This document shows, piece after piece, positions 536 to 25,325 of a DNA stretch of 64,000 nt; within the stretch, counting starts at the first letter, position 1; each line of letters begins with the position of its first letter. The stretch lies in the NCBI RefSeq assembly GCF_045037415.1, contig NZ_CP173438.1; one strand, written 5' to 3'. The DNA is from Escherichia coli. GTDB lineage: Bacteria > Pseudomonadota > Gammaproteobacteria > Enterobacterales > Enterobacteriaceae. A program made the translations under genes and the position numbers. Below the pieces are notes generated by a model. It was not told where the DNA came from. It saw only the letters and a list, made by a program, of their open reading frames with translations, and ran no database searches.

Positions 536-555
536 ATCCCTTTCTCTGAAAATCA

Positions 556-860: not shown

Positions 861-923
861 TTACTCACTAAATTAGGTTAAAGAATCAACGATGTCAATC
901 AGGGCGATGCAGGTGTGTCGCCC

Positions 924-1472: not shown

Positions 1473-1547
1473 TTTGCGGATTTCTTGTCGGGATAATGTC
1501 AGTGGGAGTTCTGGTAATTGCGTCATGGCTGGTGCCAGATAAGAAGG

Positions 1548-1730: not shown

Positions 1731-1771
1731 TTTGTCTTCACGGTTACTCTACCACAGTAAACCGAAAAGTG

Positions 1772-2167
<396 letters not shown>

Positions 2168-2268
2168 CTATAGCTACCCTGATGAGAAGAGACAAGCCCT
2201 TTTCTGGTCCACCAGGGCCCAAAGTGGTAGCATATCATGAATATTCCTCCCTTTGACGACGAATGCTT

Positions 2269-2847
2269 ATGTCTATACAGAACGAAATGCCTGGTTACAA
2301 CGAAATGAACCAGTATCTGAACCAACAAGGGACGGGTCTGACCCCTGCTGAGATGCATGGTTTAATCAGTGGGATGATATGTGGCGGTAACGATGACAGC
2401 TCATGGCTGCCGCTACTTCACGACCTGACGAACGAAGGCATGGCTTTCGGTCATGAGCTGGCACAGGCACTGCGCAAAATGCACTCTGCCACCAGCGATG
2501 CCCTGCAGGATGACGGCTTCCTTTTTCAGCTTTATCTACCTGATGGCGATGATGTCAGCGTTTTCGATCGGGCTGATGCGCTGGCTGGTTGGGTCAATCA
2601 CTTCCTGCTTGGTCTTGGCGTTACGCAACCGAAGCTGGACAAAGTGACCGGCGAAACCGGTGAAGCCATCGACGATCTGCGTAACATCGCGCAGTTGGGT
2701 TACGACGAAGACGAAGATCAGGAAGAGCTTGAAATGTCGCTTGAAGAGATCATCGAGTACGTCCGTGTTGCCGCGCTGTTATGCCACGACACCTTTACTC
2801 ATCCGCAACCGACCGCGCCAGAAGTACAAAAACCGACTCTACACTAA
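2269..2847 (+). CDS. ygfB: UPF0149 family protein YgfB
   Basis: ORF track 2263..2847; start at the third codon ([10 protein letters not shown]) gives 192 aa; divergent from zapA. Confidence 0.88.
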
Positions 2848-2872
2848 AAACAAAAAACGTAAGGAGAGTGTT

Positions 2873-4198
2873 ATGAGTGATATATCCCGGCAAGAATTTC
2901 AGCGTCGCCGTCAGGCCCTGGTAGAGCAAATGCAACCCGGCAGCGCCGCGCTGATTTTTGCTGCACCAGAAGTAACACGTAGCGCCGACAGCGAATACCC
3001 CTATCGTCAGAACAGTGACTTCTGGTACTTCACCGGCTTTAACGAACCGGAAGCGGTGCTGGTGCTGATTAAAAGCGATGACACTCATAACCACAGCGTT
3101 TTGTTTAACCGCGTTCGCGACCTGACGGCAGAGATCTGGTTTGGTCGTCGCTTAGGCCAGGATGCCGCGCCAGAGAAACTGGGCGTTGACCGCGCACTGG
3201 CATTCAGCGAAATCAATCAACAACTTTATCAACTACTTAATGGTCTGGATGTGGTTTACCACGCCCAGGGCGAATATGCATATGCTGATGAAATCGTGAA
3301 CAGCGCGCTTGAGAAACTGCGTAAAGGTTCGCGGCAAAATCTCACCGCACCGGCAACGATGATCGACTGGCGTCCTGTTGTTCATGAAATGCGCCTGTTC
3401 AAATCACCAGAAGAGATTGCCGTACTTCGCCGCGCGGGTGAAATCACCGCACTGGCGCATACACGGGCGATGGAAAAATGCCGTCCGGGGATGTTCGAGT
3501 ACCATCTGGAAGGCGAAATTCACCACGAATTTAACCGCCACGGTGCGCGTTACCCTTCCTATAACACCATTGTTGGCAGCGGTGAAAACGGCTGCATTTT
3601 GCATTACACCGAAAACGAGTGTGAACTGCGTGACGGTGACCTGGTGTTGATTGACGCGGGTTGTGAATACAAAGGTTACGCTGGCGACATTACCCGCACC
3701 TTCCCGGTCAACGGCAAATTCACTCAGGCTCAGCGTGAAATCTATGACATTGTGCTGGAGTCTCTTGAAACCAGCCTGCGCCTGTATCGTCCGGGAACTT
3801 CCATTCAGGAAGTCACTGGTGAAGTGGTGCGCATCATGGTTAGCGGTCTGGTAAAACTCGGCATCCTGAAAGGTGATGTTGATGAACTGATCGCTCAGAA
3901 CGCCCATCGTCCTTTCTTTATGCATGGCCTTAGCCACTGGTTAGGACTGGATGTTCATGACGTTGGTGTTTATGGTCAGGATCGCTCGCGTATTCTGGAA
4001 CCGGGTATGGTACTGACCGTAGAACCAGGACTGTATATTGCGCCGGATGCAGAAGTGCCAGAACAGTATCGCGGTATCGGCATTCGTATTGAAGACGATA
4101 TTGTGATTACCGAAACCGGTAATGAAAACCTCACCGCCAGCGTGGTGAAAAAGCCGGAAGAAATCGAAGCGTTGATGGCAGCTGCGAGAAAGCAATGA
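2873..4198 (+). CDS. pepP: Xaa-Pro aminopeptidase (aminopeptidase P II)
   Basis: Track ORF 2660..4198; real start at MSDISRQEFQRRRQ (RBS aaggagag) gives 441 aa; M24 metallopeptidase motif HGLSHWLGLDVHD. Confidence 0.93.
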   Translation: MSDISRQEFQRRRQALVEQMQPGSAALIFAAPEVTRSADSEYPYRQNSDFWYFTGFNEPEAVLVLIKSDDTHNHSVLFNRVRDLTAEIWFGRRLGQDAAPEKLGVDRALAFSEINQQLYQLLNGLDVVYHAQGEYAYADEIVNSALEKLRKGSRQNLTAPATMIDWRPVVHEMRLFKSPEEIAVLRRAGEITALAHTRAMEKCRPGMFEYHLEGEIHHEFNRHGARYPSYNTIVGSGENGCILHYTENECELRDGDLVLIDAGCEYKGYAGDITRTFPVNGKFTQAQREIYDIVLESLETSLRLYRPGTSIQEVTGEVVRIMVSGLVKLGILKGDVDELIAQNAHRPFFMHGLSHWLGLDVHDVGVYGQDRSRILEPGMVLTVEPGLYIAPDAEVPEQYRGIGIRIEDDIVITETGNENLTASVVKKPEEIEALMAAARKQ

Positions 4199-5373
4199 GC
4201 GTAATCATCGTCGGTGGCGGCATGGCGGGCGCGACGCTGGCGCTGGCTATTTCCCGGTTAAGTCACGGGGCGCTGCCAGTACATTTGATTGAAGCGACCG
4301 CGCCAGAGTCACATGCGCATCCGGGCTTTGATGGACGAGCTATTGCGCTGGCGGCGGGTACCTGTCAGCAACTGGCGCGCATCGGCGTCTGGCAATCTCT
4401 GGCTGATTGCGCAACTGCCATCACCACCGTGCATGTTAGCGATCGTGGTCACGCTGGATTTGTCACCCTCGCCGCAGAAGATTACCAACTGGCGGCGCTG
4501 GGGCAGGTTGTCGAATTGCACAATGTCGGGCAACGGCTGTTTGCATTGCTGCGCAAAGCACCTGGCGTAACGCTGCATTGCCCTGATCGCGTGGCTAACG
4601 TTGCCCGTACTCAGAGCCACGTTGAAGTGACGCTGGAGAGTGGCGAGACGCTGACGGGCCGCGTGCTGGTAGCCGCTGATGGCACCCATTCAGCGTTAGC
4701 CACCGCGTGCGGTGTTGACTGGCAGCAGGAGCCTTACGAACAACTGGCTGTGATTGCCAACGTTGCGACTTCCGTTGCGCATGAAGGGCGCGCTTTTGAA
4801 CGCTTTACACAATATGGCCCGCTGGCGATGTTGCCGATGTCTGACGGACGCTGTTCGCTGGTCTGGTGTCATCCACTGGAACGGCGCGAAGAGGTGCTGT
4901 CGTGGAGCGACGAGAAGTTCTGCCGTGAACTCCAGTCGGCCTTTGGCTGGCGACTGGGGCAAATTACCCACGCCGGAAAACGTAGTGCTTATCCGCTGGC
5001 GTTAACCCGCGCCGCCAAACCTATTACCCATCGTACCGTGCTGGTGGGGAATGCGGCGCAAACTCTGCATCCCATCGCCGGGCAAGGATTTAACCTCGGT
5101 ATGCGTGATGTGATGAGTCTTGCAGAAACCCTGACTCAGGCGCAGGAACGCAGAGAAGACATGGGTGATTACGGCGTATTGTGCCGTTATCAGCAGCGTC
5201 GACAGCGCGATCGCGAAGCAACCATCGGCGTCACGGACAGCCTTGTACATCTTTTTGCCAACCGTTGGACGCCGCTGGTTGTCGGGCGCAACATCGGGCT
5301 GATGACGATGGAATTATTTACCCCGGCACGCGATGTGCTGGCGCAGCGCACTCTTGGTTGGGTGGCGCGTTGA
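4195..5373 (+). CDS. ubiH: 2-octaprenyl-6-methoxyphenol hydroxylase (FAD-dependent)
   Basis: 392 aa; N-terminal FAD fold VGGGMAGATLA; ATGA start/stop overlap with pepP. Confidence 0.93.
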   Translation: MSVIIVGGGMAGATLALAISRLSHGALPVHLIEATAPESHAHPGFDGRAIALAAGTCQQLARIGVWQSLADCATAITTVHVSDRGHAGFVTLAAEDYQLAALGQVVELHNVGQRLFALLRKAPGVTLHCPDRVANVARTQSHVEVTLESGETLTGRVLVAADGTHSALATACGVDWQQEPYEQLAVIANVATSVAHEGRAFERFTQYGPLAMLPMSDGRCSLVWCHPLERREEVLSWSDEKFCRELQSAFGWRLGQITHAGKRSAYPLALTRAAKPITHRTVLVGNAAQTLHPIAGQGFNLGMRDVMSLAETLTQAQERREDMGDYGVLCRYQQRRQRDREATIGVTDSLVHLFANRWTPLVVGRNIGLMTMELFTPARDVLAQRTLGWVAR

Positions 5374-5395
5374 AGGCGGTTTTAAGGAATAAACA

Positions 5396-6598
5396 ATGCA
5401 AAGTGTTGATGTAGCCATTGTTGGCGGCGGCATGGTCGGGCTGGCGGTTGCCTGCGGCTTACAGGGTATCGGCTTACGCGTTGCCGTACTGGAGCAGCGC
5501 GTACCGGAACCTCTGGCGGCGGATGCACCACCACAACTGCGCGTTTCGGCTATCAATGCCGCCAGCGAAAAATTACTCACCCGTCTTGGCGTCTGGCAGG
5601 ACATTCTCTCTCGTAGGGCCTGTTGCTATCACGGCATGGAAGTGTGGGACAAAGACAGCTTTGGTCACATCTCGTTTGACGATCAAAGCATGGGCTATAG
5701 CCATCTTGGGCATATCGTTGAAAACTCAGTGATTCACTACGCGCTGTGGAACAAAGCGCTGCAGTCGTCAGATATCACTCTGTTGGCCCCCGCAGAATTA
5801 CAGCAGGTCGCCTGGGGTGAAAATGAAACCTTCCTGACGTTGAAAGATGGCAGCATGTTAACGGCGCGTCTGGTGATTGGCGCGGACGGCGCTAATTCCT
5901 GGTTGCGCAACAAAGCCGATATTCCGCTGACTTTCTGGGATTATCAGCATCACGCGCTGGTGGCGACCATTCGCACGGAAGAACCGCATGATGCGGTGGC
6001 GCGACAGGTTTTTCATGGCGAAGGCATTCTGGCCTTTTTGCCGCTTAGCGATCCGCATCTTTGCTCGATTGTCTGGTCACTGTCGCCAGAGGAAGCGCAG
6101 CGGATGCAGCAGGCAGGCGAAGACGAATTTAATCGCGCGTTAAATATCGCTTTTGATAATCGCCTGGGCTTATGCAAGGTTGAAAGTGAGCGCCTGGTGT
6201 TCCCGCTAACGGGGCGTTATGCGCGCCAGTTTGCCGCGCACCGTCTGGCGCTGGTGGGCGACGCCGCGCATACCATTCACCCGTTGGCGGGGCAGGGGGT
6301 AAATCTCGGCTTTATGGATGCTGCAGAGCTGATTGCTGAACTGAAACGGTTGCATCGTCAGGGTAAAGACATCGGGCAGTACATTTACCTGCGTCGCTAT
6401 GAGCGTAGCCGCAAGCACAGCGCGGCGCTGATGCTGGCTGGTATGCAGGGATTCCGCGATCTGTTTTCCGGGGCTAATCCGGCGAAAAAATTGCTGCGTG
6501 ATATTGGTCTGAAACTGGCTGATACGCTTCCTGGCGTTAAGCCACAACTTATTCGCCAGGCAATGGGATTAAACGATTTGCCTGAATGGCTGCGTTAA
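5396..6598 (+). CDS. ubiI: 2-octaprenylphenol hydroxylase (FAD-dependent; VisC)
   Basis: 400 aa; VGGGMVGLAVA dinucleotide-binding motif; paralogue of ubiH immediately upstream. Confidence 0.92.
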   Translation: MQSVDVAIVGGGMVGLAVACGLQGIGLRVAVLEQRVPEPLAADAPPQLRVSAINAASEKLLTRLGVWQDILSRRACCYHGMEVWDKDSFGHISFDDQSMGYSHLGHIVENSVIHYALWNKALQSSDITLLAPAELQQVAWGENETFLTLKDGSMLTARLVIGADGANSWLRNKADIPLTFWDYQHHALVATIRTEEPHDAVARQVFHGEGILAFLPLSDPHLCSIVWSLSPEEAQRMQQAGEDEFNRALNIAFDNRLGLCKVESERLVFPLTGRYARQFAAHRLALVGDAAHTIHPLAGQGVNLGFMDAAELIAELKRLHRQGKDIGQYIYLRRYERSRKHSAALMLAGMQGFRDLFSGANPAKKLLRDIGLKLADTLPGVKPQLIRQAMGLNDLPEWLR

Positions 6599-7045
6599 AA
6601 ATTTCTCTTCTGCTGTTTATTTGATACCCATCACACTTTCATCTCCCGGTTTTTTCGCCGGGAGATTTTCCTCATTTGAAATAAACTAATTTCACCTGCG
6701 ATTTCGCATTATATTTTCTAATGCCACGAATTTTTGATTTAGTGTTTTTTGACATTTTTTTAGTTCTTAATGTTGTCTTATTCAAATTAACTTTCTCATC
6801 TATTTATCTTTATATAGAGATTTGTTCATTTTTTGGTTTTTTATTCTGTTACGATTTTGGCGTTTTTTAACCATAAGCTAATGTGATGATCAATTTTACC
6901 TTATGGTTAACAGTCTGTTTCGGTGGTAAGTTCAGGCAAAAGAGAACGATTGCGTTGGGGACCGGGAGTGGCTCCGATGCTGGGTTTCGTGGTGATAATT
7001 TCGCCATAGAAAAGTTGTCAGCCCCGCTTATTCAATGAGGACAAG

Positions 7046-8140
7046 ATGGCACAACAGACTCCTTTGTACGAACAACACACGCTTTGCGGCGCTCGCATGG
7101 TGGATTTCCACGGCTGGATGATGCCGCTGCATTACGGTTCGCAAATCGACGAACATCATGCGGTACGTACCGATGCCGGAATGTTTGATGTGTCACATAT
7201 GACCATCGTCGATCTTCGCGGCAGCCGCACCCGGGAGTTTCTACGTTATCTGCTGGCGAACGATGTGGCGAAGCTCACCAAAAGCGGCAAAGCCCTTTAC
7301 TCGGGGATGTTGAATGCCTCTGGCGGTGTGATAGATGATCTCATCGTCTACTACTTTACTGAAGATTTCTTCCGCCTCGTTGTTAACTCCGCCACCCGCG
7401 AAAAAGACCTCTCCTGGATTACCCAACACGCTGAACCTTTCGGCATCGAAATTACTGTTCGTGATGACCTTTCCATGATCGCCGTACAAGGGCCGAATGC
7501 GCAGGCAAAAGCTGCCACACTGTTTAATGACGCCCAGCGTCAGGCGGTGGAAGGGATGAAACCGTTCTTTGGCGTGCAGGCGGGCGATCTGTTTATTGCC
7601 ACCACCGGTTACACCGGTGAAGCGGGCTACGAAATTGCGCTGCCCAATGAAAAAGCGGCCGATTTCTGGCGCGCGCTGGTGGAAGCTGGCGTTAAGCCAT
7701 GTGGCCTGGGCGCGCGTGACACGCTGCGTCTGGAAGCGGGCATGAATTTGTATAGCCAGGAGATGGACGAAACTATTTCTCCTTTAGCCGCCAATATGGG
7801 CTGGACTATCGCCTGGGAACCGGCAGATCGTGACTTTATCGGTCGTGAAGCTCTGGAAGCGCAGCGTGAACATGGCACAGAAAAACTGGTTGGTCTGGTG
7901 ATGACCGAAAAAGGCGTGCTGCGTAATGAACTGCCGGTACGTTTTACTGATGCGCAGGGCAACCAGCATGAAGGCATTATCACCAGCGGTACTTTCTCCC
8001 CAACGCTGGGTTATAGCATTGCGCTGGCGCGCGTGCCGGAAGGTATTGGTGAAACGGCGATTGTGCAAATTCGCAACCGTGAAATGCCGGTTAAAGTGAC
8101 GAAACCTGTTTTTGTGCGTAACGGCAAAGCCGTCGCGTGA
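7046..8140 (+). CDS. gcvT: Glycine cleavage system T protein (aminomethyltransferase)
   Basis: 364-aa [44 protein letters not shown]...; first gene of gcvTHP. Confidence 0.95.
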
Positions 8141-8163
8141 TTTACTTTTTTGGAGATTGATTG

Positions 8164-8553
8164 ATGAGCAACGTACCAGCAGAACTGAAATACAGCAAAG
8201 AACACGAATGGTTGCGTAAAGAAGCCGACGGCACTTACACCGTTGGCATCACCGAACACGCTCAGGAGCTGTTAGGCGATATGGTGTTTGTTGACCTGCC
8301 GGAAGTGGGCGCAACGGTTAGCGCGGGCGATGACTGCGCGGTTGCCGAATCGGTAAAAGCGGCGTCAGATATTTATGCGCCAGTAAGCGGTGAAATCGTG
8401 GCGGTAAACGATGCACTGAGCGATTCTCCGGAACTGGTCAACAGCGAACCGTATGCAGGCGGCTGGATTTTCAAAATCAAAGCCAGCGATGAAAGCGAAC
8501 TGGAATCACTGCTGGATGCAACCGCATACGAAGCATTGTTAGAAGACGAGTAA
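8164..8553 (+). CDS. gcvH: Glycine cleavage system H protein (lipoyl carrier)
   Basis: Track ORF 8161..8553; start at the second Met gives 129 aa; lipoyl-lysine context [11 protein letters not shown]. Confidence 0.94.
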
Positions 8554-8671
8554 CGGCTTTATTCCTCTTCTGCGGGAGAGGATCAGGGTGAGGAACATTT
8601 ACGCCTCACCCTCACTCTCTTCGTAAGGAGAGAGGTTCACAATTCACTGCACGTTTCAGGAACCATCGCTC

Positions 8672-11545
8672 ATGACACAGACGTTAAGCCAGCTTGAAAA
8701 CAGCGGCGCTTTTATTGAACGCCATATCGGACCGGACGCCGCGCAACAGCAAGAAATGCTGAATGCCGTTGGCGCACAATCGTTAAACGCGCTGACCGGC
8801 CAGATTGTGCCGAAAGATATTCAGCTTGCGACTCCGCCGCAGGTTGGCGCACCGGCGACCGAATACGCCGCACTGGCAGAACTCAAGGCTATTGCCAGTC
8901 GCAATAAACGCTTCACGTCTTACATCGGCATGGGTTACACCGCCGTGCAGCTACCGCCGGTTATCCTGCGTAACATGCTGGAAAATCCGGGCTGGTATAC
9001 CGCGTATACTCCGTATCAACCTGAAGTCTCCCAGGGCCGCCTTGAAGCACTGCTCAACTTCCAGCAGGTAACGCTGGATTTAACCGGGCTGGATATGGCC
9101 TCTGCTTCTCTTCTTGACGAAGCCACCGCTGCCGCCGAAGCAATGGCGATGGCGAAACGCGTCAGCAAACTGAAAAATGCCAACCGCTTCTTTGTTGCTT
9201 CTGACGTTCATCCGCAAACGCTGGATGTGGTCCGTACTCGTGCCGAAACCTTTGGTTTTGAAGTGATTGTCGATGATGCGCAAAAAGTGCTCGACCATCA
9301 GGACGTCTTCGGCGCGCTGTTACAGCAGGTCGGCACTACTGGTGAAATTCACGACTACACTGCGCTTATTAGCGAACTGAAATCACGCAAAATTGTGGTC
9401 AGCGTTGCCGCCGATATTATGGCGCTGGTGCTGTTAACTGCGCCAGGTAAACAGGGCGCGGATATTGTTTTTGGTTCGGCGCAACGCTTTGGCGTACCGA
9501 TGGGCTACGGTGGCCCACACGCGGCATTCTTTGCGGCGAAAGACGAATACAAACGCTCAATGCCGGGCCGTATTATCGGTGTATCGAAAGATGCAGCTGG
9601 CAACACCGCTCTGCGCATGGCGATGCAGACTCGTGAGCAACATATTCGTCGTGAAAAAGCGAACTCCAACATTTGTACATCCCAGGTCTTGCTGGCAAAC
9701 ATTGCCAGTCTGTATGCCGTTTACCACGGTCCGGTTGGCCTGAAACGTATCGCTAACCGCATCCACCGTCTGACCGATATCCTGGCGGCGGGCCTGCAAC
9801 AAAAAGGTCTGAAGCTGCGCCATGCGCACTATTTCGATACTTTGTGTGTGGAAGTGGCCGACAAAGCGGGCGTGCTGGCGCGTGCCGAAGCGGCTGAAAT
9901 CAACCTGCGTAGCGATATTCTGAACGCGGTTGGGATCACCCTTGATGAAACCACTACGCGCGAAAACGTGATGCAGCTTTTCAGCGTGCTGTTGGGCGAT
10001 AACCACGGGCTGGACATCGACACACTGGACAAAGACGTGGCTCACGACAGTCGCTCTATTCAGGCTGCGATGCTGCGCGACGACGAAATCCTCACCCATC
10101 CGGTGTTTAATCGCTACCACAGCGAAACCGAAATGATGCGCTATATGCACTCGCTGGAGCGTAAAGATCTGGCGCTGAATCAGGCGATGATCCCGCTGGG
10201 TTCCTGCACCATGAAACTGAACGCCGCCGCCGAGATGATCCCGATCACCTGGCCGGAATTTGCCGAACTGCACCCGTTCTGCCCGCCGGAACAGGCTGAA
10301 GGTTATCAGCAGATGATCGCGCAGCTGGCTGAGTGGCTGGTGAAACTGACCGGTTACGACGCCGTTTGTATGCAGCCGAACTCTGGCGCACAGGGCGAAT
10401 ACGCGGGCCTGCTGGCGATTCGTCATTATCATGAAAGCCGCAACGAAGGGCATCGCGATATCTGCCTGATCCCGGCTTCTGCGCACGGCACTAACCCGGC
10501 TTCCGCGCATATGGCAGGAATGCAGGTGGTGGTTGTGGCGTGTGATAAAAACGGCAACATCGATCTGACTGATCTGCGCGCGAAAGCCGAACAGGCGGGC
10601 GATAACCTCTCCTGTATCATGGTGACCTATCCTTCCACCCACGGCGTGTATGAAGAAACGATCCGTGAAGTGTGTGAAGTCGTGCATCAGTTCGGCGGTC
10701 AGGTTTACCTTGATGGCGCGAACATGAACGCTCAGGTTGGCATCACCTCGCCGGGCTTTATTGGTGCGGACGTTTCCCACCTTAACCTGCATAAAACTTT
10801 CTGCATTCCGCATGGCGGTGGTGGTCCGGGTATGGGACCGATCGGTGTGAAAGCGCATCTGGCTCCGTTTGTACCGGGTCATAGCGTGGTGCAAATCGAA
10901 GGCATGTTAATCCGTCAGGGCGCGGTTTCTGCGGCACCGTTCGGTAGTGCCTCTATCCTGCCAATCAGCTGGATGTACATCCGCATGATGGGCGCAGAAG
11001 GGCTGAAAAAAGCAAGCCAGGTGGCAATTCTTAACGCCAACTATATTGCCAGCCGTCTGCAGGATGCCTTCCCGGTGCTGTATACCGGTCGCGACGGTCG
11101 CGTGGCGCACGAATGTATTCTCGATATTCGCCCGCTGAAAGAAGAAACCGGCATCAGCGAGCTGGATATTGCCAAGCGCCTGATCGACTACGGTTTCCAC
11201 GCGCCGACCATGTCGTTCCCGGTGGCGGGTACGCTGATGGTTGAACCGACTGAATCTGAAAGCAAAGTGGAACTGGATCGCTTTATCGATGCGATGCTGG
11301 CTATCCGCGCAGAAATTGACCAGGTGAAAGCCGGTGTCTGGCCGCTGGAAGATAACCCGCTGGTGAACGCGCCGCACATTCAGAGCGAACTGGTCGCCGA
11401 GTGGGCGCATCCGTACAGTCGTGAAGTTGCAGTATTCCCGGCAGGTGTGGCAGACAAATACTGGCCGACCGTGAAACGTCTGGATGATGTTTACGGCGAC
11501 CGTAACCTGTTCTGCTCCTGCGTACCGATTAGCGAATACCAGTAA
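8672..11545 (+). CDS. gcvP: Glycine dehydrogenase (decarboxylating), glycine cleavage P protein
   Basis: 957-aa [33 protein letters not shown]...; length and sequence match GcvP. Confidence 0.95.
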
Positions 11546-11567
11546 TTTACTGATTCGACTATCTTCT

Positions 11568-11590
11568 AAAGGCGCTTCGGCGCCTTTTTC
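11568..11590 (+). terminator. Rho-independent terminator of gcvTHP
   Basis: ggcgc-ttcg-gcgcc hairpin followed by ttttt about 22 nt after the gcvP stop; flanked by A-run, so possibly bidirectional. Confidence 0.7.
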
Positions 11591-11710
11591 GCTTGTTAAT
11601 AAAGTGCGCTTTGTGTGTTTCGGTTGAGGCGTAATATAAAATATTGCGAGCTCAATATATTAAAAGAGTGCCAGGCCTGATGAGCGGAGCACATCAGGCA
11701 CATCGGCTAA

Positions 11711-13171
<1,461 letters not shown>

Positions 13172-13188
13172 TTACAGGAAATATTACC

Positions 13189-13500
13189 ATGCAGCCAAAC
13201 GACATCACTTTTTTTCAACGTTTCCAGGATGACATTCTGGCTGGGCGTAAAACCATCACCATCCGCGACGAGTCTGAATCGCACTTCAAAACGGGTGATG
13301 TGCTTCGTGTCGGACGTTTTGAAGATGACGGTTATTTTTGCACGATTGAAGTCACCGCAACCTCAACCGTAACGCTGGATACGCTGACGGAAAAACATGC
13401 AGAGCAGGAAAATATGACCCTGACTGAACTGAAAAAGGTCATTGCCGACATCTATCCCGACCAGACACAGTTTTATGTGATTGAATTTAAATGTCTTTAA
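13189..13500 (+). CDS. yqfB: ASCH-domain protein YqfB
   Basis: 103-aa [31 protein letters not shown]...; divergent from bglA. Confidence 0.9.
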
Positions 13501-13660
13501 ATTGAACTCACGCCTGTTAGTTGAAATTTCGCATTTAATTTCATGATTTTTCGGAGATTAATCTCAAATCAGAATTTATTTTAGCTAACAGGTGTTCACT
13601 GGAACTATTCTCAGTTACGCTGGAGAGGTATACATGTGCGTGTACGTTTTTCCGGAGTAA

Positions 13661-14323
<663 letters not shown>

Positions 14324-14329
14324 TTGGCG

Positions 14330-14395
14330 TGCCTTTGTAGGCCTGAAAAGACACACCAGTGTCGCATCAGGCGATAAATGCCTGATGCGATACAG
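14330..14395. repeat. REP-type palindromic elements
   Basis: Inverted REP-like units (gtcgcatcaggcg / gcctgatgcgat) between the convergent stops of yqfA and ygfZ. Confidence 0.5.
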
Positions 14396-14399
14396 AGAT

Positions 14400-15380
14400 T
14401 TACTCTTCCAGCGAATATGGCAGTGGCTCAATACGCAATGTATTCGCATCGTCACGCACGCGGAAGATGCTGTCCGGTTCCATATCGTTATTCATGACAA
14501 CCTGCACCACAACCTGACCATCTTCCAGTTTGACCGCAGCCAGCACCGTACCGGTACGACGCCAGTTCTCGCCCATTTTCAGCTCTAAGTCTTCACCAGC
14601 TTCCGGCAGTCGGCTGGCGCTACCCGTCAGCAACCAGAGCGCGCGTTTGTTGGCACCACGGAATTTTGCTCGCGCCACCATCTCTTGTCCGGTATAGCAG
14701 CCTTTCTTAAAGCTGATGCCGCCCAGCGCCTGGAGGTTGGTCGCCTGGGGGATAAACTGCCCGCTGTTGGCGGCATCAATCACCGGAAAACCCGCTTCAA
14801 TGTTTAATGCCAGCCACTGTTGGCTATTGTTCAGTTCCGCTTCACCGCGCAGTTTATCGGTCAGCATATTGGCAGTAGCTTCATCGGTTACGATCAGGAA
14901 ACGTTCTGCCGGGTGTTCAAACCATAGCAACGTGGTCGCGCCTTCTTTGACTACCTGTTTTTCTCTCGAAGGTAGTTCACTAAAGAGATTTGCCAACGCG
15001 GTGCGCGCCTGAAAACCGGCAACACCAAGCAGCACACGCTCGTCGTCTGGCGCGATGGTCACTTTAGAGAACACCGCATATTTTTTCAGTTCAGTCAGCT
15101 GCGGTTCACGCACGCTGCGCCGTTCAATCCATGCAAAGCCATCGCCGTCGCGGAACAGACGTAAATTGCTCCACATTTTACCTTTGGCGTCGCAATGGGC
15201 GGCGAGCAGGTGCTGATCTTCAGTCATCTGGCTGACATCTGCTGTCACCTGGCCTTGCATATATTTTTCGCTGTCCGCGCCAGTAATAGTGGCAAGCGCC
15301 CAGTCATCAAGCGTCATCAGCGTCAGTGGCAAACGGGCAGAAGCCGTAGGCTGACGGGGAGGAAAAGGTGTAAAAGCCAT
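14400..15380 (-). CDS. ygfZ: tRNA-modifying folate-binding protein YgfZ
   Basis: 326-aa [52 protein letters not shown]... Confidence 0.93.
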
Positions 15381-15610
15381 AATAGAGTCCTGAGTTGCTT
15401 AACGGCGTATTAATCACTAATGGTAAAAGAGCTATGAGGCAATGCAAGTGCTTTCACTGCGCGATCTGTGCCTTCTGCGAGGCGACTTCCAAAAAAATGA
15501 AGCCCTTGAATTGTTGTGAATTAATTTCGCGATCGCGATTGTGTTTACTGATATTCCCGTAAAAGAAGTCGAAAAACACGTTACAATAGCCGGGTACTGG
15601 ATTTTCGTGA

Positions 15611-16277
<667 letters not shown>

Positions 16278-16316
16278 AGATGACGGCAAAGCATATGTGC
16301 TAAGCCGTCAGTGACA

Positions 16317-16838
16317 TCAGGCGTAATGCTCTGCCATTTCGTTGAGGATTTGCTCGCACCAGCTTTGAATACGCTCGTCGCTAAGGTCATACTGGTTAGT
16401 TTCATCCAGCGCCAGACCCACGAACAGTTGCCCGTCAGCAATCACCGGTTTCGGACTGGTAAATTCATATCCTTCCGTTGGCCAGTAGCCGACGAACTTC
16501 ACGCCTTTGGTCGAGAGTTTGTCATGCAGCATACCGAGCGCATCGAGGAACCACTCGCCGTATCCCAGTTGATCGCCAAGCCCATACAGCGCAACAATTT
16601 TACCTTCGAGGTTCAGGTCGTCGAGCTGATCCCAGACGGCTTCCCAGTCTTCCTGGATTTCGCCAAAATCCCAGGTCGGGATACCCAGAATGAGCACATC
16701 GTACTGCTCCATTAATTTCGGGGAGTCGTCCTTGAGGTTATGTAAGGTCACCAGTTCTGGGCCGATAATATCGCGGATTTTTTCTGCCGCCATTTCGGTG
16801 TAACAGGTGCTGGAACCGTAAAAAAGACCCATATTCAT
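16317..16838 (-). CDS. fldB: Flavodoxin 2
   Basis: 173-aa [29 protein letters not shown]...; flavodoxin FMN-binding N-terminus. Confidence 0.93.
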
Positions 16839-16949
16839 AACGTAAGCTTCTCGATTCTGCTGTGGCTTTTGCGGCTAGTGTATCAGAATCGCTTTAGTCA
16901 CGGCACAATAAGGCATAATGGATCAAATGAGTGACCATAAGGGGCGCAA

Positions 16950-17846
16950 GTGAAACAGGATCTGGCACGCATCGAGCAGTTTCTTGATGCTCTGTGGCTG
17001 GAAAAAAATCTGGCTGAAAATACGTTGAACGCTTACCGTCGCGATCTGTCAATGATGGTGGAGTGGTTGCATCACCGCGGGTTGACGCTGGCGACGGCGC
17101 AAAGTGACGATTTGCAGGCATTACTGGCAGAACGGCTGGAGGGCGGGTATAAAGCCACCAGCTCAGCGCGTTTGCTGAGTGCAGTGCGCCGATTGTTCCA
17201 GTATCTTTATCGCGAAAAGTTTCGTGAAGATGATCCCAGTGCGCATCTCGCTTCACCGAAATTGCCCCAGCGTTTGCCAAAAGATTTAAGCGAAGCGCAG
17301 GTCGAACGTTTATTACAGGCACCATTAATTGATCAGCCACTGGAGCTACGCGATAAAGCCATGCTTGAAGTGTTGTATGCTACCGGACTGCGTGTCTCTG
17401 AACTGGTCGGGCTGACAATGAGTGATATCAGCCTGCGTCAGGGCGTGGTGCGGGTCATTGGTAAAGGCAACAAAGAGCGCCTGGTGCCGTTAGGTGAAGA
17501 GGCGGTTTACTGGCTGGAAACCTATCTGGAACATGGGCGTCCGTGGCTGTTGAATGGTGTGTCAATTGACGTGTTGTTTCCCAGCCAGCGTGCGCAGCAG
17601 ATGACGCGACAGACCTTCTGGCACCGCATTAAACATTATGCCGTGCTGGCGGGTATCGACAGCGAAAAGCTGTCACCGCATGTGTTGCGTCACGCTTTTG
17701 CCACTCACTTATTAAATCATGGTGCGGATTTACGCGTGGTGCAGATGCTACTGGGCCACAGCGATCTCTCCACCACGCAAATTTATACGCATGTCGCTAC
17801 CGAGCGTCTGCGACAACTTCATCAACAGCATCACCCGCGGGCGTGA
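16950..17846 (+). CDS. xerD: Site-specific tyrosine recombinase XerD
   Basis: 298 aa; catalytic C-terminal motifs LRHAFATHLLNHGADLRVVQMLLGHSDLSTTQIYTHV. Confidence 0.95.
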   Translation: MKQDLARIEQFLDALWLEKNLAENTLNAYRRDLSMMVEWLHHRGLTLATAQSDDLQALLAERLEGGYKATSSARLLSAVRRLFQYLYREKFREDDPSAHLASPKLPQRLPKDLSEAQVERLLQAPLIDQPLELRDKAMLEVLYATGLRVSELVGLTMSDISLRQGVVRVIGKGNKERLVPLGEEAVYWLETYLEHGRPWLLNGVSIDVLFPSQRAQQMTRQTFWHRIKHYAVLAGIDSEKLSPHVLRHAFATHLLNHGADLRVVQMLLGHSDLSTTQIYTHVATERLRQLHQQHHPRA

Positions 17847-17870
17847 TGTCTGAAAAGAACAGGAAAATTT

Positions 17871-18581
17871 ATGAAGAAAGGTTTTATGTTATTTACCTTG
17901 TTGGCAGCGTTTTCAGGCTTTGTTCAGGCTGATGACGCGGCAATTCAACAAACGTTAGCCAAAATGGGCATCAAAAGCAGCGATATTCAGCCCGCGCCCG
18001 TAGCTGGCATGAAGACAGTTCTGACTAACAGCGGTGTGTTGTACATCACCGATGATGGTAAACATATCATTCAGGGGCCAATGTATGACGTTAGTGGCAC
18101 GGCTCCGGTCAATGTCACCAATAAGATGCTGTTAAAGCAGTTGAATGCGCTTGAAAAAGAGATGATCGTTTATAAAGCGCCGCAGGAAAAACACGTCATC
18201 ACCGTGTTTACTGATATTACCTGTGGTTACTGCCACAAACTGCATGAGCAAATGGCAGACTATAACGCGCTGGGGATCACCGTGCGTTATCTTGCTTTCC
18301 CGCGCCAGGGGCTGGACAGCGATGCAGAGAAAGAAATGAAAGCTATCTGGTGTGCGAAAGATAAAAACAAAGCGTTTGATGATGTGATGGCAGGTAAAAG
18401 CGTCGCACCAGCCAGCTGCGACGTAGATATTGCCGACCATTACGCACTTGGCGTCCAGCTTGGCGTTAGCGGTACTCCGGCAGTTGTGCTGAGCAATGGC
18501 ACACTTGTTCCGGGTTACCAGCCGCCGAAAGACATGAAAGAATTCCTCGACGAACACCAAAAAATGACCAGCGGTAAATAA
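17871..18581 (+). CDS. dsbC: Thiol:disulfide interchange protein DsbC
   Basis: 236 aa; signal peptide; CGYC active site in TDITCGYCHKLH. Confidence 0.95.
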   Translation: MKKGFMLFTLLAAFSGFVQADDAAIQQTLAKMGIKSSDIQPAPVAGMKTVLTNSGVLYITDDGKHIIQGPMYDVSGTAPVNVTNKMLLKQLNALEKEMIVYKAPQEKHVITVFTDITCGYCHKLHEQMADYNALGITVRYLAFPRQGLDSDAEKEMKAIWCAKDKNKAFDDVMAGKSVAPASCDVDIADHYALGVQLGVSGTPAVVLSNGTLVPGYQPPKDMKEFLDEHQKMTSGK

Positions 18582-18586
18582 TTCGC

Positions 18587-20320
18587 GTGAAACAACAGAT
18601 ACAACTTCGTCGCCGTGAAGTCGATGAAACGGCCGACTTGCCCGCTGAATTGCCTCCCTTGCTGCGCCGTTTATATGCCAGCCGGGGTGTGCGTAGCGCG
18701 CAGGAACTGGAACGCAGTGTTAAAGGCATGCTGCCCTGGCAGCAACTGAGCGGCGTCGAAAAGGCCGTTGAGATCCTTTACAACGCTTTTCGCGAAGGAA
18801 CGCGGATTATTGTGGTCGGTGATTTCGACGCCGACGGTGCCACCAGCACGGCTCTAAGCGTGCTGGCGATGCGCTCGCTTGGTTGCAGCAATATCGACTA
18901 CCTGGTTCCAAACCGTTTCGAAGACGGTTACGGCTTAAGCCCGGAAGTAGTCGATCAGGCTCATGCCCGTGGCGCGCAGTTAATTGTCACGGTGGATAAC
19001 GGTATTTCCTCCCATGCGGGGGTTGAACACGCTCGTTCGTTGGGCATTCCGGTTATTGTTACCGATCACCATTTGCCAGGCGACACATTACCCGCAGCGG
19101 AAGCGATCATTAACCCTAACTTGCGCGACTGTAATTTCCCGTCGAAATCACTGGCGGGCGTTGGCGTGGCGTTTTATCTGATGCTGGCGCTGCGCACCTT
19201 TTTGCGCGATCAGGGCTGGTTTGATGAGCGCGGCATCGCAATTCCTAATCTGGCAGAACTGCTGGATCTGGTAGCGTTGGGGACAGTGGCGGACGTCGTG
19301 CCGCTGGACGCTAATAATCGCATTCTGACCTGGCAGGGGATGAGTCGCATCCGTGCCGGAAAGTGCCGTCCGGGGATTAAAGCGTTGCTGGAAGTGGCCA
19401 ATCGCGATCCACAAAAACTCGCCGCCAGCGATTTAGGTTTTGCGCTGGGGCCACGTCTCAATGCTGCCGGGCGACTGGACGATATGTCCGTTGGCGTGGC
19501 GCTGTTGCTGTGCGACAACATCGGCGAAGCGCGCGTGCTGGCAAATGAACTCGATGCGCTAAACCAGACGCGAAAAGAGATCGAACAGGGAATGCAAGTT
19601 GAAGCCCTGACCTTGTGCGAGAAACTGGAGCGCAGCCGCGACACGCTACCCGGCGGGCTGGCAATGTATCACCCCGAATGGCATCAGGGCGTTGTCGGTA
19701 TTCTGGCTTCGCGCATCAAAGAGCGTTTTCATCGTCCGGTTATCGCCTTTGCGCCAGCTGGTGATGGTACGCTGAAAGGTTCCGGTCGCTCCATTCAGGG
19801 GCTGCATATGCGTGATGCGCTGGAGCGGCTAGACACGCTTTACCCCGGCATGATGCTCAAGTTTGGCGGTCATGCGATGGCGGCGGGTTTGTCGCTGGAA
19901 GAGGAGAAATTCGAACTCTTTCAACAACGGTTTGGCGAACTGGTTACTGAGTGGCTGGACCCTTCGCTATTGCAAGGCGAAGTGGTGTCGGACGGTCCGT
20001 TAAGTCCGGCCGAAATGACCATGGAAGTGGCGCAGCTGTTGCGCGATGCTGGCCCGTGGGGGCAGATGTTCCCGGAGCCGCTGTTTGATGGTCATTTCCG
20101 TCTGCTGCAACAGCGGCTGGTGGGCGAACGTCATTTGAAAGTCATGGTCGAACCGGTCGGCGGCGGTCCACTGCTGGACGGGATTGCTTTTAATGTCGAT
20201 ACCGCCCTCTGGCCGGATAACGGCGTGCGCGAAGTGCAACTGGCTTACAAGCTCGATATCAACGAGTTTCGCGGCAACCGCAGCCTGCAAATTATCATCG
20301 ACAATATCTGGCCAATTTAG
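18587..20320 (+). CDS. recJ: Single-stranded-DNA-specific exonuclease RecJ
   Basis: 577 aa; DHH phosphoesterase motifs (VGDFDADGATS, DHHLPG). Confidence 0.95.
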   Translation: MKQQIQLRRREVDETADLPAELPPLLRRLYASRGVRSAQELERSVKGMLPWQQLSGVEKAVEILYNAFREGTRIIVVGDFDADGATSTALSVLAMRSLGCSNIDYLVPNRFEDGYGLSPEVVDQAHARGAQLIVTVDNGISSHAGVEHARSLGIPVIVTDHHLPGDTLPAAEAIINPNLRDCNFPSKSLAGVGVAFYLMLALRTFLRDQGWFDERGIAIPNLAELLDLVALGTVADVVPLDANNRILTWQGMSRIRAGKCRPGIKALLEVANRDPQKLAASDLGFALGPRLNAAGRLDDMSVGVALLLCDNIGEARVLANELDALNQTRKEIEQGMQVEALTLCEKLERSRDTLPGGLAMYHPEWHQGVVGILASRIKERFHRPVIAFAPAGDGTLKGSGRSIQGLHMRDALERLDTLYPGMMLKFGGHAMAAGLSLEEEKFELFQQRFGELVTEWLDPSLLQGEVVSDGPLSPAEMTMEVAQLLRDAGPWGQMFPEPLFDGHFRLLQQRLVGERHLKVMVEPVGGGPLLDGIAFNVDTALWPDNGVREVQLAYKLDINEFRGNRSLQIIIDNIWPI

Positions 20321-20410
20321 CGTCATCTTCTCTATAAAAAAGAGCGTGGATTGGGTACAATCCCGCTCTTATCACCGCATTTTGACTAGCTCAATAAAAG
20401 AAATCAGACC

Positions 20411-21509
20411 ATGTTTGAAATTAATCCGGTAAATAATCGCATTCAGGACCTCACGGAACGCTCCGACGTTCTTAGGGGGTATCTTTGACTACGACGCCAA
20501 GAAAGAGCGTCTGGAAGAAGTAAACGCCGAGCTGGAACAGCCGGATGTCTGGAACGAACCCGAACGCGCACAGGCGCTGGGTAAAGAGCGTTCCTCCCTC
20601 GAAGCCGTTGTCGACACCCTCGACCAAATGAAACAGGGGCTGGAAGATGTTTCTGGTCTGCTGGAACTGGCTGTAGAAGCTGACGACGAAGAAACCTTTA
20701 ACGAAGCCGTTGCTGAACTCGACGCCCTGGAAGAAAAACTGGCGCAGCTTGAGTTCCGCCGTATGTTCTCTGGCGAATATGACAGCGCCGACTGCTACCT
20801 CGATATTCAGGCGGGGTCTGGCGGTACGGAAGCACAGGACTGGGCGAGCATGCTTGAGCGTATGTATCTGCGCTGGGCTGAATCGCGTGGTTTCAAAACT
20901 GAAATCATCGAAGAGTCGGAAGGTGAAGTGGCGGGTATTAAATCCGTGACGATCAAAATCTCCGGCGATTACGCTTATGGCTGGCTGCGTACAGAAACCG
21001 GCGTTCACCGCCTGGTGCGTAAGAGCCCGTTTGACTCCGGCGGTCGTCGCCACACGTCGTTCAGCTCCGCGTTTGTTTACCCGGAAGTTGATGATGATAT
21101 CGATATCGAAATCAATCCAGCGGATCTGCGCATCGACGTTTATCGCGCATCCGGCGCGGGCGGTCAGCACGTTAACCGTACCGAATCTGCGGTGCGTATT
21201 ACTCACATCCCAACCGGGATCGTGACCCAATGCCAGAACGACCGTTCCCAGCACAAGAACAAAGACCAGGCCATGAAGCAGATGAAAGCGAAGCTTTATG
21301 AACTGGAGATGCAGAAGAAAAATGCCGAGAAACAGGCGATGGAAGATAACAAATCCGACATCGGCTGGGGCAGCCAGATTCGTTCTTATGTCCTTGATGA
21401 CTCCCGCATTAAAGATCTGCGTACCGGGGTAGAAACTCGCAACACGCAGGCCGTGCTGGACGGCAGCCTGGATCAATTTATCGAAGCAAGTTTGAAAGCA
21501 GGGTTATGA
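20411..21509 (+). CDS. prfB: Peptide chain release factor 2 (requires programmed +1 frameshift)
   Basis: ATG opens a 25-codon frame ...AGG GGG TAT CTT TGA C; the +1 frame continues as [11 protein letters not shown]... into track ORF 20628..21509; GGQ motif ([13 protein letters not shown]) present. Joined product about 365 aa. Confidence 0.93.
20476..20490 (+). other. prfB programmed +1 ribosomal frameshift site (internal SD + CUU UGA C)
   Basis: Sequence agggggtatctttgac: SD-like AGGGGG, 3-nt spacer, slippery CUU followed by in-frame UGA. Confidence 0.9.
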
Positions 21510-21518
21510 GGAACCAAC

Positions 21519-23036
21519 ATGTCTGAACAACACGCACAGGGCGCTGACGCGGTAGTCGATCTTAACAATGAACTGAAAACGCGTCGTGAGAAGCTGGCGA
21601 ACCTGCGTGAGCAGGGGATTGCCTTCCCGAACGATTTCCGTCGCGATCATACCTCTGACCAATTGCACGCAGAATTCGACGGTAAAGAGAACGAAGAACT
21701 GGAAGCGCTGAACATCGAAGTCGCCGTTGCTGGCCGCATGATGACCCGTCGTATTATGGGTAAAGCGTCTTTCGTTACCCTGCAGGACGTTGGCGGTCGC
21801 ATTCAGTTGTACGTTGCCCGTGACGATCTGCCGGAAGGCGTTTACAACGAGCAGTTCAAAAAATGGGACCTCGGCGATATCCTCGGCGCGAAAGGTAAAC
21901 TGTTCAAAACCAAAACCGGCGAACTGTCTATCCACTGTACCGAGCTGCGTCTGCTGACCAAAGCACTGCGTCCGCTGCCGGATAAATTCCACGGCTTGCA
22001 GGATCAGGAAGCGCGCTATCGTCAGCGTTATTTGGATCTCATCTCTAACGATGAATCCCGCAACACCTTTAAAGTGCGCTCGCAGATCCTCTCTGGTATT
22101 CGCCAGTTCATGGTGAACCGCGGCTTTATGGAAGTTGAAACGCCGATGATGCAGGTGATCCCTGGCGGTGCCGCTGCGCGTCCGTTTATCACTCACCATA
22201 ACGCGCTGGATCTCGACATGTACCTGCGTATCGCGCCGGAACTGTACCTCAAGCGTCTGGTGGTCGGTGGCTTCGAGCGTGTATTCGAAATCAACCGTAA
22301 CTTCCGTAACGAAGGTATTTCCGTACGTCATAACCCAGAGTTCACCATGATGGAACTCTATATGGCTTACGCAGATTACAAAGATCTGATCGAGCTGACC
22401 GAATCGCTGTTCCGTACTCTGGCACAGGATATTCTCGGTAAGACGGAAGTGACCTACGGCGACGTAACGCTGGACTTCGGTAAACCGTTCGAAAAACTGA
22501 CCATGCGTGAAGCGATCAAGAAATATCGCCCGGAAACCGACATGGCGGATCTGGACAACTTCGACTCTGCGAAAGCGATTGCTGAATCTATCGGCATCCA
22601 CGTTGAAAAGAGCTGGGGTCTGGGCCGTATCGTTACCGAGATCTTCGAAGAAGTGGCAGAAGCTCATCTGATCCAGCCGACCTTCATTACTGAATATCCG
22701 GCAGAAGTTTCTCCTCTGGCGCGTCGTAACGACGTTAACCCGGAAATCACAGACCGCTTTGAGTTCTTCATTGGTGGGCGTGAAATCGGTAACGGCTTTA
22801 GCGAACTGAATGACGCGGAAGATCAGGCGCAGCGCTTCCTGGATCAGGTTGCCGCGAAAGATGCAGGTGACGACGAAGCGATGTTCTACGACGAAGATTA
22901 TGTCACCGCACTGGAACATGGCTTACCGCCGACAGCCGGTCTGGGAATTGGTATCGACCGTATGGTGATGCTGTTCACCAACAGCCATACCATCCGCGAC
23001 GTTATTCTGTTCCCGGCGATGCGTCCGGTAAAATAA
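21519..23036 (+). CDS. lysS: Lysyl-tRNA synthetase (constitutive)
   Basis: 505 aa, [33 protein letters not shown]...; 9-nt spacing after the prfB stop. Confidence 0.96.
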
Positions 23037-23056
23037 GCATTACGTTATGCTCACAA

Positions 23057-23080
23057 CCCCGGCAACCGTCGGGGTTTTTT
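23057..23080 (+). terminator. Rho-independent terminator after lysS
   Basis: ccccg-gcaaccgt-cgggg hairpin followed by tttttt; the convergent idi stop codon lies in the T-run. Confidence 0.75.
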
Positions 23081-23627
23081 ATTTAAGTTGGGTAAATGCA
23101 GATAATCGTTTTCTGGCTTCGCGATTTGTCGCCTGCATCACCATCCACGGACTGAACGCCCACGGCGTAGCATCAATACCGCGTAAAACCGCTGCTAAAT
23201 CACACCATTGATAATCCATCACTTCATCATCGTTGATCTGTAACGCACTGGTCGTGCGTGCGGCAAATACCGGACACACTTCATTTTCCACAATGCCATT
23301 CGGATCGGTGGCGCGGTAGCGAAAGTCAGGATAGATAGATTCAGGAGGCGTAATTTCTACGCCAAGCTCATAACGGCAACGGCGGATCACCGCCTCTTCG
23401 TTGCTTTCTCCCAGTTGTGGGTGCCCACAAACCGAGTTAGTCCACACGCCAGGCCATGCTTTTTTGCTAAGGGCGCGGCGGGTAACTAATAATTGCCCTT
23501 TGGCATTAAACAGCCAACTGGAAAACGCGAGATGTAAGAGGGTGTCTGCCGTGTGTGCGGCATACTTTTCCAGCGTACCCGTGGGAACTCCCTGTGCATT
23601 CAATAAAATGACGTGTTCCGTTTGCAT
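23079..23627 (-). CDS. idi: Isopentenyl-diphosphate delta-isomerase (Nudix)
   Basis: 182-aa [44 protein letters not shown]... Confidence 0.94.
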
Positions 23628-23876
23628 AATTTCTCACATGTAATTCTGATCACTCATCATTATAGATAATAGAAGAGTGAAATGATTAACCAAGTGAGCG
23701 TTTATCGACAACCGCCCGTTTTGAGCGGATGTCGACAGGTAAAAACCATTTAAAAAAGCAGCATCATATATTTGAAGCGACTTTCAATGGCCATTGCAAC
23801 ACAATCAGAAATGACAGGAATAGAGAGAGTAAAAAGCAACAGCAGACTGAATATAGCGCGCATTAAAAGATTCATA

Positions 23877-25325
23877 TTATTCTCCATGCTCATTTTTCTT
23901 CAGCTTGCGCATCAGAAGCCACATACGTACTGTCCTGACTTTTAAATCTTTATCAGAGACGGATTCCTTCACCAGGTCAGCATGATGCTGGTAGCCATTA
24001 AAGAAGACGTTCAGCACAACGGCGCTAAGGGTTGCGAGCATAATGCCGCTATGCAGCAACGGTTGCAGTACGGCCGGTAACTTAGAAAAGAAATCGTGAG
24101 AGAGCGTTGGCGTCATGCCAACACCGAGACTGATCGCCACAATATAGAGGTTGTAACGGTTAGTGGTGTAGTTACAGCGCGACAGAATTCGAATCCCTGT
24201 CGCCAGTACCATGCCGAACATCACCAGCCCCGCGCCGCCCAGCACAAATTGCGGAATGGAGGCGACCAGCACCGCCATTTTGGGCACCATGCCAAACAGG
24301 ATTAATATAATTCCCGAAGAAATACACACCCAGCGGCTGTGGACGCGCGTCACGCTGACCAGCCCGACGTTCTGCGAAAATGACGTATGTGGGAAGCTGT
24401 TAAACGTGCCTCCAATCATTGTCCCGACCCCATCTACGCGTAACCCACGAATAATGTCCTGGGAAGAGAGTTTGCGACCGACTATTTCACCCAGTGCCAG
24501 GAACATCCCCATTGACTCAATAAATACGATGATGAGTACTGCGGTCATGGTCAAAATGGAAACGGGATCGAAAATCGGCATACCAAATGACATCGGCGTG
24601 ACAATCGCAAACCATGAAGCATCATGTAGCCCGGATAAATTGACTTCATTCATCATCCACGAAAGTAAAAAGCCAAATACAATCCCCAGTAATACGGCGA
24701 CGTTGGACATAAATCCTTTCGCATAGCGAGTAATGAGCAAGATAAAAATTAAGACGGCAAAGGAGATACCTAAATAAACGGGATTACCATATTGCGGATT
24801 CCCTTTACCTCCGGCGGCCCAGTCAATACCCACCTGAATGATGCTAAGCCCGATAGAAGTAATCACCACACCGGTAACCAGTGGCGGGAATAAAGGCATC
24901 AAGCGACCGATAAGTGGCGCTAATAATGTGGTGATAAAACCCGCGGCGATAGTGGCACCGAATATCCCCAGCAGGCCGATATCCGGGTTCATACCAATGG
25001 CTATCATTGGTGTTACAGCGGCGAAGGTCACCGACATAATCACCGGCAGGCGGATCCCCATAAAGCGGCCGATACCGATACATTGCAATAATGTGACGAT
25101 CCCGCAGCAAAAGAGATCCGAGCTAATGAGCATCGCAATAGCTTCTTTTGATAGGCCGAGTCGGTCACCAATCATAAGAGGAACAGCGACTGCACCTGCG
25201 TACATGACAAGGACGTGTTGCAGACCGAGTATGATCAGCTTTCCTGGTGATAATATGCGGTCAACCTCATCAGTTGGGCGGTCTTGCCCAGAAGATGAGG
25301 GAAGTTGGGAATCTATGGCGCTCAT
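23877..25325 (-). CDS. uacT: Uric acid:H+ symporter (NCS2/NAT family)
   Basis: Track ORF 23877..25454; internal start MSAIDSQLPSSSGQ gives 482 aa; polytopic NAT-family membrane protein. Confidence 0.88.
   Translation of the reverse strand: MSAIDSQLPSSSGQDRPTDEVDRILSPGKLIILGLQHVLVMYAGAVAVPLMIGDRLGLSKEAIAMLISSDLFCCGIVTLLQCIGIGRFMGIRLPVIMSVTFAAVTPMIAIGMNPDIGLLGIFGATIAAGFITTLLAPLIGRLMPLFPPLVTGVVITSIGLSIIQVGIDWAAGGKGNPQYGNPVYLGISFAVLIFILLITRYAKGFMSNVAVLLGIVFGFLLSWMMNEVNLSGLHDASWFAIVTPMSFGMPIFDPVSILTMTAVLIIVFIESMGMFLALGEIVGRKLSSQDIIRGLRVDGVGTMIGGTFNSFPHTSFSQNVGLVSVTRVHSRWVCISSGIILILFGMVPKMAVLVASIPQFVLGGAGLVMFGMVLATGIRILSRCNYTTNRYNLYIVAISLGVGMTPTLSHDFFSKLPAVLQPLLHSGIMLATLSAVVLNVFFNGYQHHADLVKESVSDKDLKVRTVRMWLLMRKLKKNEHGE

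Follow-up and report, generated by a model that had tools for sequence, protein, structure and literature searches.

We found that the prfB gene of this Escherichia coli chromosome carries an intact, textbook self-regulating +1 frameshift signal that gives a release factor RF2 of 365 residues, a reading to which we assign a probability of about 0.97 and which no feature of the sequence contradicts. The anatomy of the site, the full-length product of the joined frames, the identity of the allele, the conservation of the site and the purifying selection acting on the gene were all observed directly, in the stretch of DNA analysed here (64,000 nucleotides, hereafter the window) and in the comparisons made with it. 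RF2 reads UGA and most UAA stop codons, and in its own gene an in-frame UGA follows the first 25 codons. The elements of the site and of the gene, with their positions in the window, are the following.

20411..20485, + strand: prfB ORF1, codons 1-25 of RF2 (Met1 to Leu25) in the 0 frame, from the translation and its match to the solved E. coli RF2
20474..20479, + strand: internal Shine-Dalgarno-like element AGGGGG, read in the sequence
20480..20482, + strand: 3-nt spacer TAT (Tyr24) between the Shine-Dalgarno-like element and the slippery codon, read in the sequence
20483..20486, + strand: slippery sequence CUU U, read in the sequence; the proposed re-pairing of the P-site tRNA-Leu from CUU to UUU is taken from PMC12421855 and PMC10798248
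20486..20489, + strand: in-frame RF2-specific stop UGA (0-frame codon 26) with its 3' C, a weak stop; read in the sequence, its weakness from PMC12421855
20487..21509, + strand: prfB ORF2, RF2 codons 26-365 and the terminal TGA (21507-21509) in the +1 frame, from the translation, the Pfam matches and dN/dS
21024..21032, + strand: SPF tripeptide, residues 205-207, from the position of the motif in the translation
21147..21149, + strand: codon 246, GCA (Ala) in place of the K-12 ACG (Thr), from the comparison of the coding sequences
21159..21167, + strand: GGQ motif, residues 250-252, from the position of the motif in the translation
21519..23036, + strand: lysS, whose start lies 9 nt past the prfB stop, from the ORF list and the RefSeq annotation

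The sequence at 20411-20489 opens with atgtttgaa and ends in ctttgac, and every element of the frameshift site lies where the first-pass annotation had put it, correct to the base. That annotation had described a 25-codon frame ending CUU UGA C and preceded by AGGGGG at the canonical 3-nt spacing. Indeed, the 0 frame starts at the ATG at 20411 and runs over 25 codons to CTT (20483-20485), which is followed by TGA (20486-20488), an in-frame stop at codon 26, and then by C at 20489. In CTTTGA (20483-20488) the slippery CUU U precedes and overlaps the stop, and the distance of 3 nt from AGGGGG (20474-20479) to CTT is occupied by TAT (20480-20482). We searched both strands of the 64-kb window with the 16-nt pattern AGGGGGNNNCTTTGAC, tolerating one mismatch, and observed a single occurrence; 0.03 matches were expected by chance, and any match at all was seen in 3 of 100 shuffles.

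When stop codons were mapped over 20380-21520 in all three forward frames, the +1 frame (that of 20487) had two, TAA at 20430 and TGA at 21507, and is thus without a stop from 20433 up to the latter (21507-21509), while the 0 frame had many beyond 20486. As had been proposed, the body of RF2 continues in the +1 frame: positions 20487-21506 hold 340 codons without a stop, the first of which, GAC, overlaps the UGA, and they align to residues 26-365 of RF2. In the ORF list prfB is represented by two entries, an ORF of 25 aa (20411..20488) and an ORF of 293 aa (20628..21509). Since the +1 frame contains no ATG, GTG or TTG between 20433 and 20628, the 293-aa ORF begins at the internal Met73 (ATG 20628), and residues 26-72 of RF2 are therefore missing from both entries. 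The gene is thus split in the list by the frameshift, and the explanation of the ORF track that had been offered from the letters holds.

That the ORF list holds exactly these two ORFs would also be expected if the functional product were a truncated RF2 of 293 aa initiated at ATG 20628 (Met73), the 25-codon ORF being an unrelated upstream leader peptide. We consider this extremely improbable. Residues 26-72, encoded in the open +1 frame, match the solved full-length RF2 residue for residue, and in the 96 listed species discussed below conservation extends from residue 26 on. In addition, ORF1 corresponds to residues 1-25 of RF2, the alignment to the NCBIfam prfB model begins at residue 12, and the full-length 365-aa E. 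coli RF2 with the N-terminus MFEINP is known from solved structures.

For the product of the +1 frameshift, joining 20411..20485 to 20487..21509 gives 1098 nt, i.e. 365 codons and a stop. The joined protein aligns end to end with 1gqe_A (E = 8.1e-241), the sole difference being L/V at residue 298, and it differs at one position from 1ml5_Z, a K-12 chain, with A246 here and T246 there. A joined translation, which had been suggested as a check, therefore yields full-length RF2, one residue off each of these two chains. On the NCBIfam model TIGR00020 prfB, whose curated cut-off is 370 bits, the protein scores 525.9 bits; the RF1 models give 304-306 bits, under their cut-offs of 400-423, and the PrfH model also remains under its cut-off. 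Pfam places PCRF (PF03462) at residues 31-219 and RF-1 (PF00472) at residues 228-337. The SPF tripeptide, present at residues 205-207, is the stop-codon recognition motif of RF2 among class I release factors. The GGQ motif is that of peptidyl-tRNA hydrolysis (PMC5373646). As for the end of the gene, the terminal stop of prfB is itself a UGA (TGA-G), which is read by RF2 only.

We compared the gene with two reference alleles. The 190 nt at 20321-20510, which span the site, are identical to those of K-12 MG1655, and the recJ-prfB spacer together with the first 100 nt of prfB likewise shows 100% identity to MG1655, on which the frameshift mechanism was originally worked out. The whole prfB coding sequence is base-for-base that of E. 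coli SK1144, whose RefSeq entry for prfB (protein WP_001701073.1) joins two pieces and bears the note 'programmed frameshift'. The alignment to a reference prfB that had been recommended thus agrees with SK1144 over the coding sequence and with MG1655 over the site region. Compared with K-12, the coding sequence has 16 nt differences, namely 14 synonymous third-position changes and two changes in codon 246, so that the two proteins differ at one residue only (Ala246/Thr246). The NG86 method gives a dN of 0.0012 and a dS of 0.064 in comparison to K-12. A dN/dS of 0.018 in a frame that is reached only via the +1 shift indicates strong purifying selection and excludes a pseudogene.

The site is conserved throughout the species. 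The 1261-nt region was matched in 5425 of the 5426 complete E. coli genomes, with one copy each and many at 100%. An exact copy of the 30 nt at 20460-20489, which we call the cassette, is present in 5418 of 5425 genomes, the remainder of the cassette search being 7 genomes at 95-99% identity and one genome without a match. A longer stretch of 45 nt at 20456-20500 is exact in 4410 of 5421 genomes; the variants of it that were inspected lie 3' of the cassette, at 20492 (TAC to TAT, synonymous in the +1 frame) and at 20496 (GCC to ACC).

We also carried out a cross-species scan for TAGGGGGNNNCTTTGAC with one genome per species, which gave at least 120 loci. Among the matches listed, an RF2 homolog from another species directly follows the motif in the +1 frame at 96 of 120; at these 96 listed loci the codon overlapping the stop opens a protein that aligns to residues 26-365 of RF2 from its first residue, with 23-98% identity. 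The other listed loci are chance matches outside RF2 (21) or are cut by the end of the locus (3), and with 21 chance matches among the 120 listed the motif is not fully specific without its RF2 context. In the other species listed, ORF1 has mostly 24-25 codons and ends in RGYL or RGSL. The spacer among the 96 listed species is TAT in 46, TCT in 35, TAC in 12 and another triplet in 3, so that the spacer found here is the commonest one. The loci were chosen by the motif and its positions are therefore invariant by construction, which limits the independent evidence to the spacer, the length of ORF1 and the downstream homology. These three features agree with published surveys (PMC12421855, PMC10798248).

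This conservation bears on another reading, in which prfB would be a pseudogene, or in which a sequencing or assembly error would have introduced a spurious extra T into CTTT and split a continuous gene. A naive ORF call does return a 25-aa and a 293-aa piece, and the records of two O157:H7 strains, SS17 and SS52, contain CTTGAC and a continuous frame. However, the extra T is present in all matched E. coli genomes but these 2, with the cassette exact in 5418 of 5425, and the same codon is interrupted in the 96 listed distant species, together with Shine-Dalgarno-like and UGA-C signals that would not arise from a random frameshift. The disruption is moreover a single one, and dN/dS past the shift is 0.018. 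We therefore give this reading next to no weight, in agreement with the first-pass annotation, which had stated that the gene is not a pseudogene and had named the absence of the CUU UGA C context, or additional frame disruptions downstream, as what would speak against its claim. The CUU UGA C context is present and no extra disruption was found downstream, the cut-off of the prfB model is passed and the sequence is identical to SK1144 prfB.

Concerning SS17 (NZ_CP008805.1) and SS52 (NZ_CP010304.1), both are cattle-faeces isolates, and in their RefSeq records CTTGAC stands in place of CTTTGAC, so that prfB is a single frame uninterrupted by UGA. The prfB coding sequence is annotated unsplit in SS17, where 26 of the 30 nt of the cassette were matched at 100% identity. 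The CTTGAC allele is absent from all other matched E. coli genomes. It may be a manual 'fix' of the frameshift, i.e. a curation artefact, or it may reflect a real loss of autoregulation.

[quoted passage not shown] The local RNA structure at 20440-20560 is not significant (z = -1.53, with 11 of 200 shuffles folding equally well), and a downstream RNA structure as stimulator of the frameshift was dropped on these figures. An Rfam search found no family at the frameshift site, SECIS included, its only matches in the window being 6S RNA, Sib RNA and one tRNA. Taken together, the lack of local structure and of an Rfam match fits a signal that works without downstream structure.

The same results help to decide how the UGA at 20486 is passed. 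Instead of a ribosomal +1 shift, one could think of readthrough or selenocysteine insertion, since the UGA-C context is leaky and selenocysteine is encoded by UGA, or else of transcriptional slippage. However, 31 codons further on the 0 frame is closed by TAA at 20582, without having entered RF2 sequence. Selenocysteine insertion is further opposed by the non-significant RNA structure (z = -1.5; 11/200 shuffles) and by the lack of an Rfam SECIS match at the site, and slippage by the run of three T, which is generally too short for efficient slippage of the polymerase. In addition, earlier studies describe the shift as ribosomal (PMC12421855, PMC10798248). We consider that these routes deserve hardly any credence, and that a ribosomal +1 shift best accounts for the product.

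The course of this +1 shift in the present strain can be proposed by analogy with experiments on the identical E. coli sequence, from which the slippage, the part played by the Shine-Dalgarno-like element and the dependence on the RF2 level would carry over. Ribosomes would start at ATG 20411, translate 25 codons and pause while tRNA-Leu occupies CUU (20483-20485) in the P site and the A site contains the weak UGA-C (20486-20489). With RF2 in abundance, termination would occur at the UGA and a 25-residue peptide would be released. When RF2 is scarce, the pause would be longer; AGGGGG would pair with the 3' tail of the 16S rRNA, the mRNA would be strained and the pairing in the P site destabilised, the tRNA-Leu would slip from CUU to UUU and GAC would enter the A site as Asp26. 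From there the +1 frame would be translated to its end, yielding RF2 of 365 aa, the level of RF2 setting in this way the rate of its own synthesis by negative feedback.

Such a model, with a pause, competition by RF2, strain from Shine-Dalgarno:anti-Shine-Dalgarno pairing and re-pairing of the tRNA, has been described previously (PMC12421855, PMC10798248). That the efficiency of frameshifting falls as RF2 rises is an experimental result, obtained with a K-12 sequence identical to the site here (PMC12421855, PMC5373646, PMC10798248). AGGGGG is the consensus across more than 12,000 genomes, and UGAC is a weak stop context (PMC12421855). The frameshift efficiency measured in E. coli with a reporter is about 50% (PMC10798248). 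Ribosome profiling of the native locus gave about 28% for K-12 RF2 and about 21% for the Ala246 allele, so that frameshifting was slightly lower when Ala246 was put into the K-12 background (PMC5373646). For the frameshift of E. coli K-12 prfB, PMC12421855 cites Craigen and Caskey 1986 and Weiss et al. 1987.

As for the 25-residue termination product of ORF1, we think it very unlikely that it acts as a functional micropeptide and is not a by-product. With the present evidence, a micropeptide role is inseparable from ordinary conservation of the N-terminus of RF2.

In SK1144, xerD, dsbC and recJ are found upstream of prfB, and lysS and idi downstream; the order is the same in K-12 MG1655. The sole terminator-like site on the + strand in 20000-23300 lies at 23055-23076, after lysS, and lysS is probably co-transcribed with prfB. 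The position of this terminator fits the prfB-lysS operon, which we take to be a known one. Within 21507-21521, a GAGG Shine-Dalgarno sequence overlaps the prfB stop ahead of the lysS start. A consensus scan found no sigma-70-like promoter in the 90-nt recJ-prfB spacer; the only match of the scan lies inside the coding region, and the count is below the shuffle expectation. The same spacer contains an imperfect inverted repeat, AAGAGCGTGGATT ... AATCCCGCTCTT, at 20341-20371, which is identical in K-12 and at which the scan flagged a terminator-like site on the minus strand only; it may be the terminator of recJ or a REP-like element. Two long antisense ORFs were also considered, one of 334 aa at 20472-21476 (- strand), opposite prfB, and one of 471 aa at 21504-22919 (- strand), opposite lysS. 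Neither has a Pfam match, and they are most likely shadow ORFs of strongly codon-biased sense genes.

Elsewhere in the window, a Sib antitoxin RNA is found at 748-898 (- strand, 133.7 bits), at the position of K-12 sibC, the other strand encoding the toxin ibsC at about 764-823, and 6S RNA (ssrS) at 1547-1730 (- strand, 139.8 bits); both RNAs are ordinary E. coli features. The spacer between gcvP and bglA (11546-11710) is only 165 nt long, K-12 ygfF (3045158-3045901) being absent here as it is in SK1144. The tRNA-Gly(CCC) gene glyU (57453-57526) is directly followed by yqeG, yqeF, kduI, kduD and araE. In K-12, glyU is instead followed by the ETT2 remnant, a block from ygeQ through ygeF that consists mostly of pseudogenes and has an IS2 copy; this block is absent here. 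Positions 57669-64000 gave no match in the K-12 stretch compared, and 55420-64000 is 100% identical to SK1144. Positions 1-19421 are 98.9% identical to SK1144 (210 mismatches), and 17800-24060 and 55420-64000 are 99.97-100% identical; from sequence comparison, this step in identity suggests the boundary of a recombination patch somewhere before about 17800.

In comparison to K-12 prfB, the spacer to recJ, ORF1, the Shine-Dalgarno-like element, the 3-nt spacer, CUU UGA C and the next 21 nt are all identical. The two genes also share the 25-codon ORF1, the length of 365 aa, recJ upstream and lysS 9 nt downstream, and they differ by 16 nt further into the coding sequence, with Ala246 here and Thr246 in K-12. 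Set against the bacterial prfB cassette, AGGGGG, the 3-nt spacer, CTTTGAC and an ORF1 of about 24-25 codons all match, and nothing distinguishes the site here. Surveys of the prfB cassette across Bacteria have reportedly been made by Baranov 2002 and Bekaert 2006. In the eukaryotic antizyme genes and in yeast Ty1/Ty3, as in prfB, a +1 shift at an A-site codon that is slow to decode serves as a sensor. Their stimulators are polyamines with a pseudoknot and rare tRNAs, they are not known to involve Shine-Dalgarno:anti-Shine-Dalgarno pairing or reading by a release factor, and the prfB site does not belong to either family. In other bacterial lineages the cassette varies: the Shine-Dalgarno-like element is degenerate in some Flavobacteriales, the slippery run is TTTTTGA in a few low-GC genomes, and Actinomycetota are without the motif (PMC12421855, PMC10798248).

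At the sequence level, every feature that defines the prfB recoding site and RF2 is present in the strain studied here, a non-K-12 E. coli that combines a canonical frameshift cassette with the Ala246 form of RF2. Ala246 is the canonical and more active allele outside K-12 (PMC5373646). As a weaker alternative, one already documented, this allele could give the strain an autoregulatory set-point other than that of K-12 (PMC5373646). The site, which lies in an ordinary E. coli chromosome of non-K-12 type, is the textbook one; it is already known and is the classic example of programmed +1 frameshifting. For annotation, prfB is to be given as one joined coding sequence (20411..20485, 20487..21509), and neither as a pseudogene nor as a truncated ORF of 293 aa.
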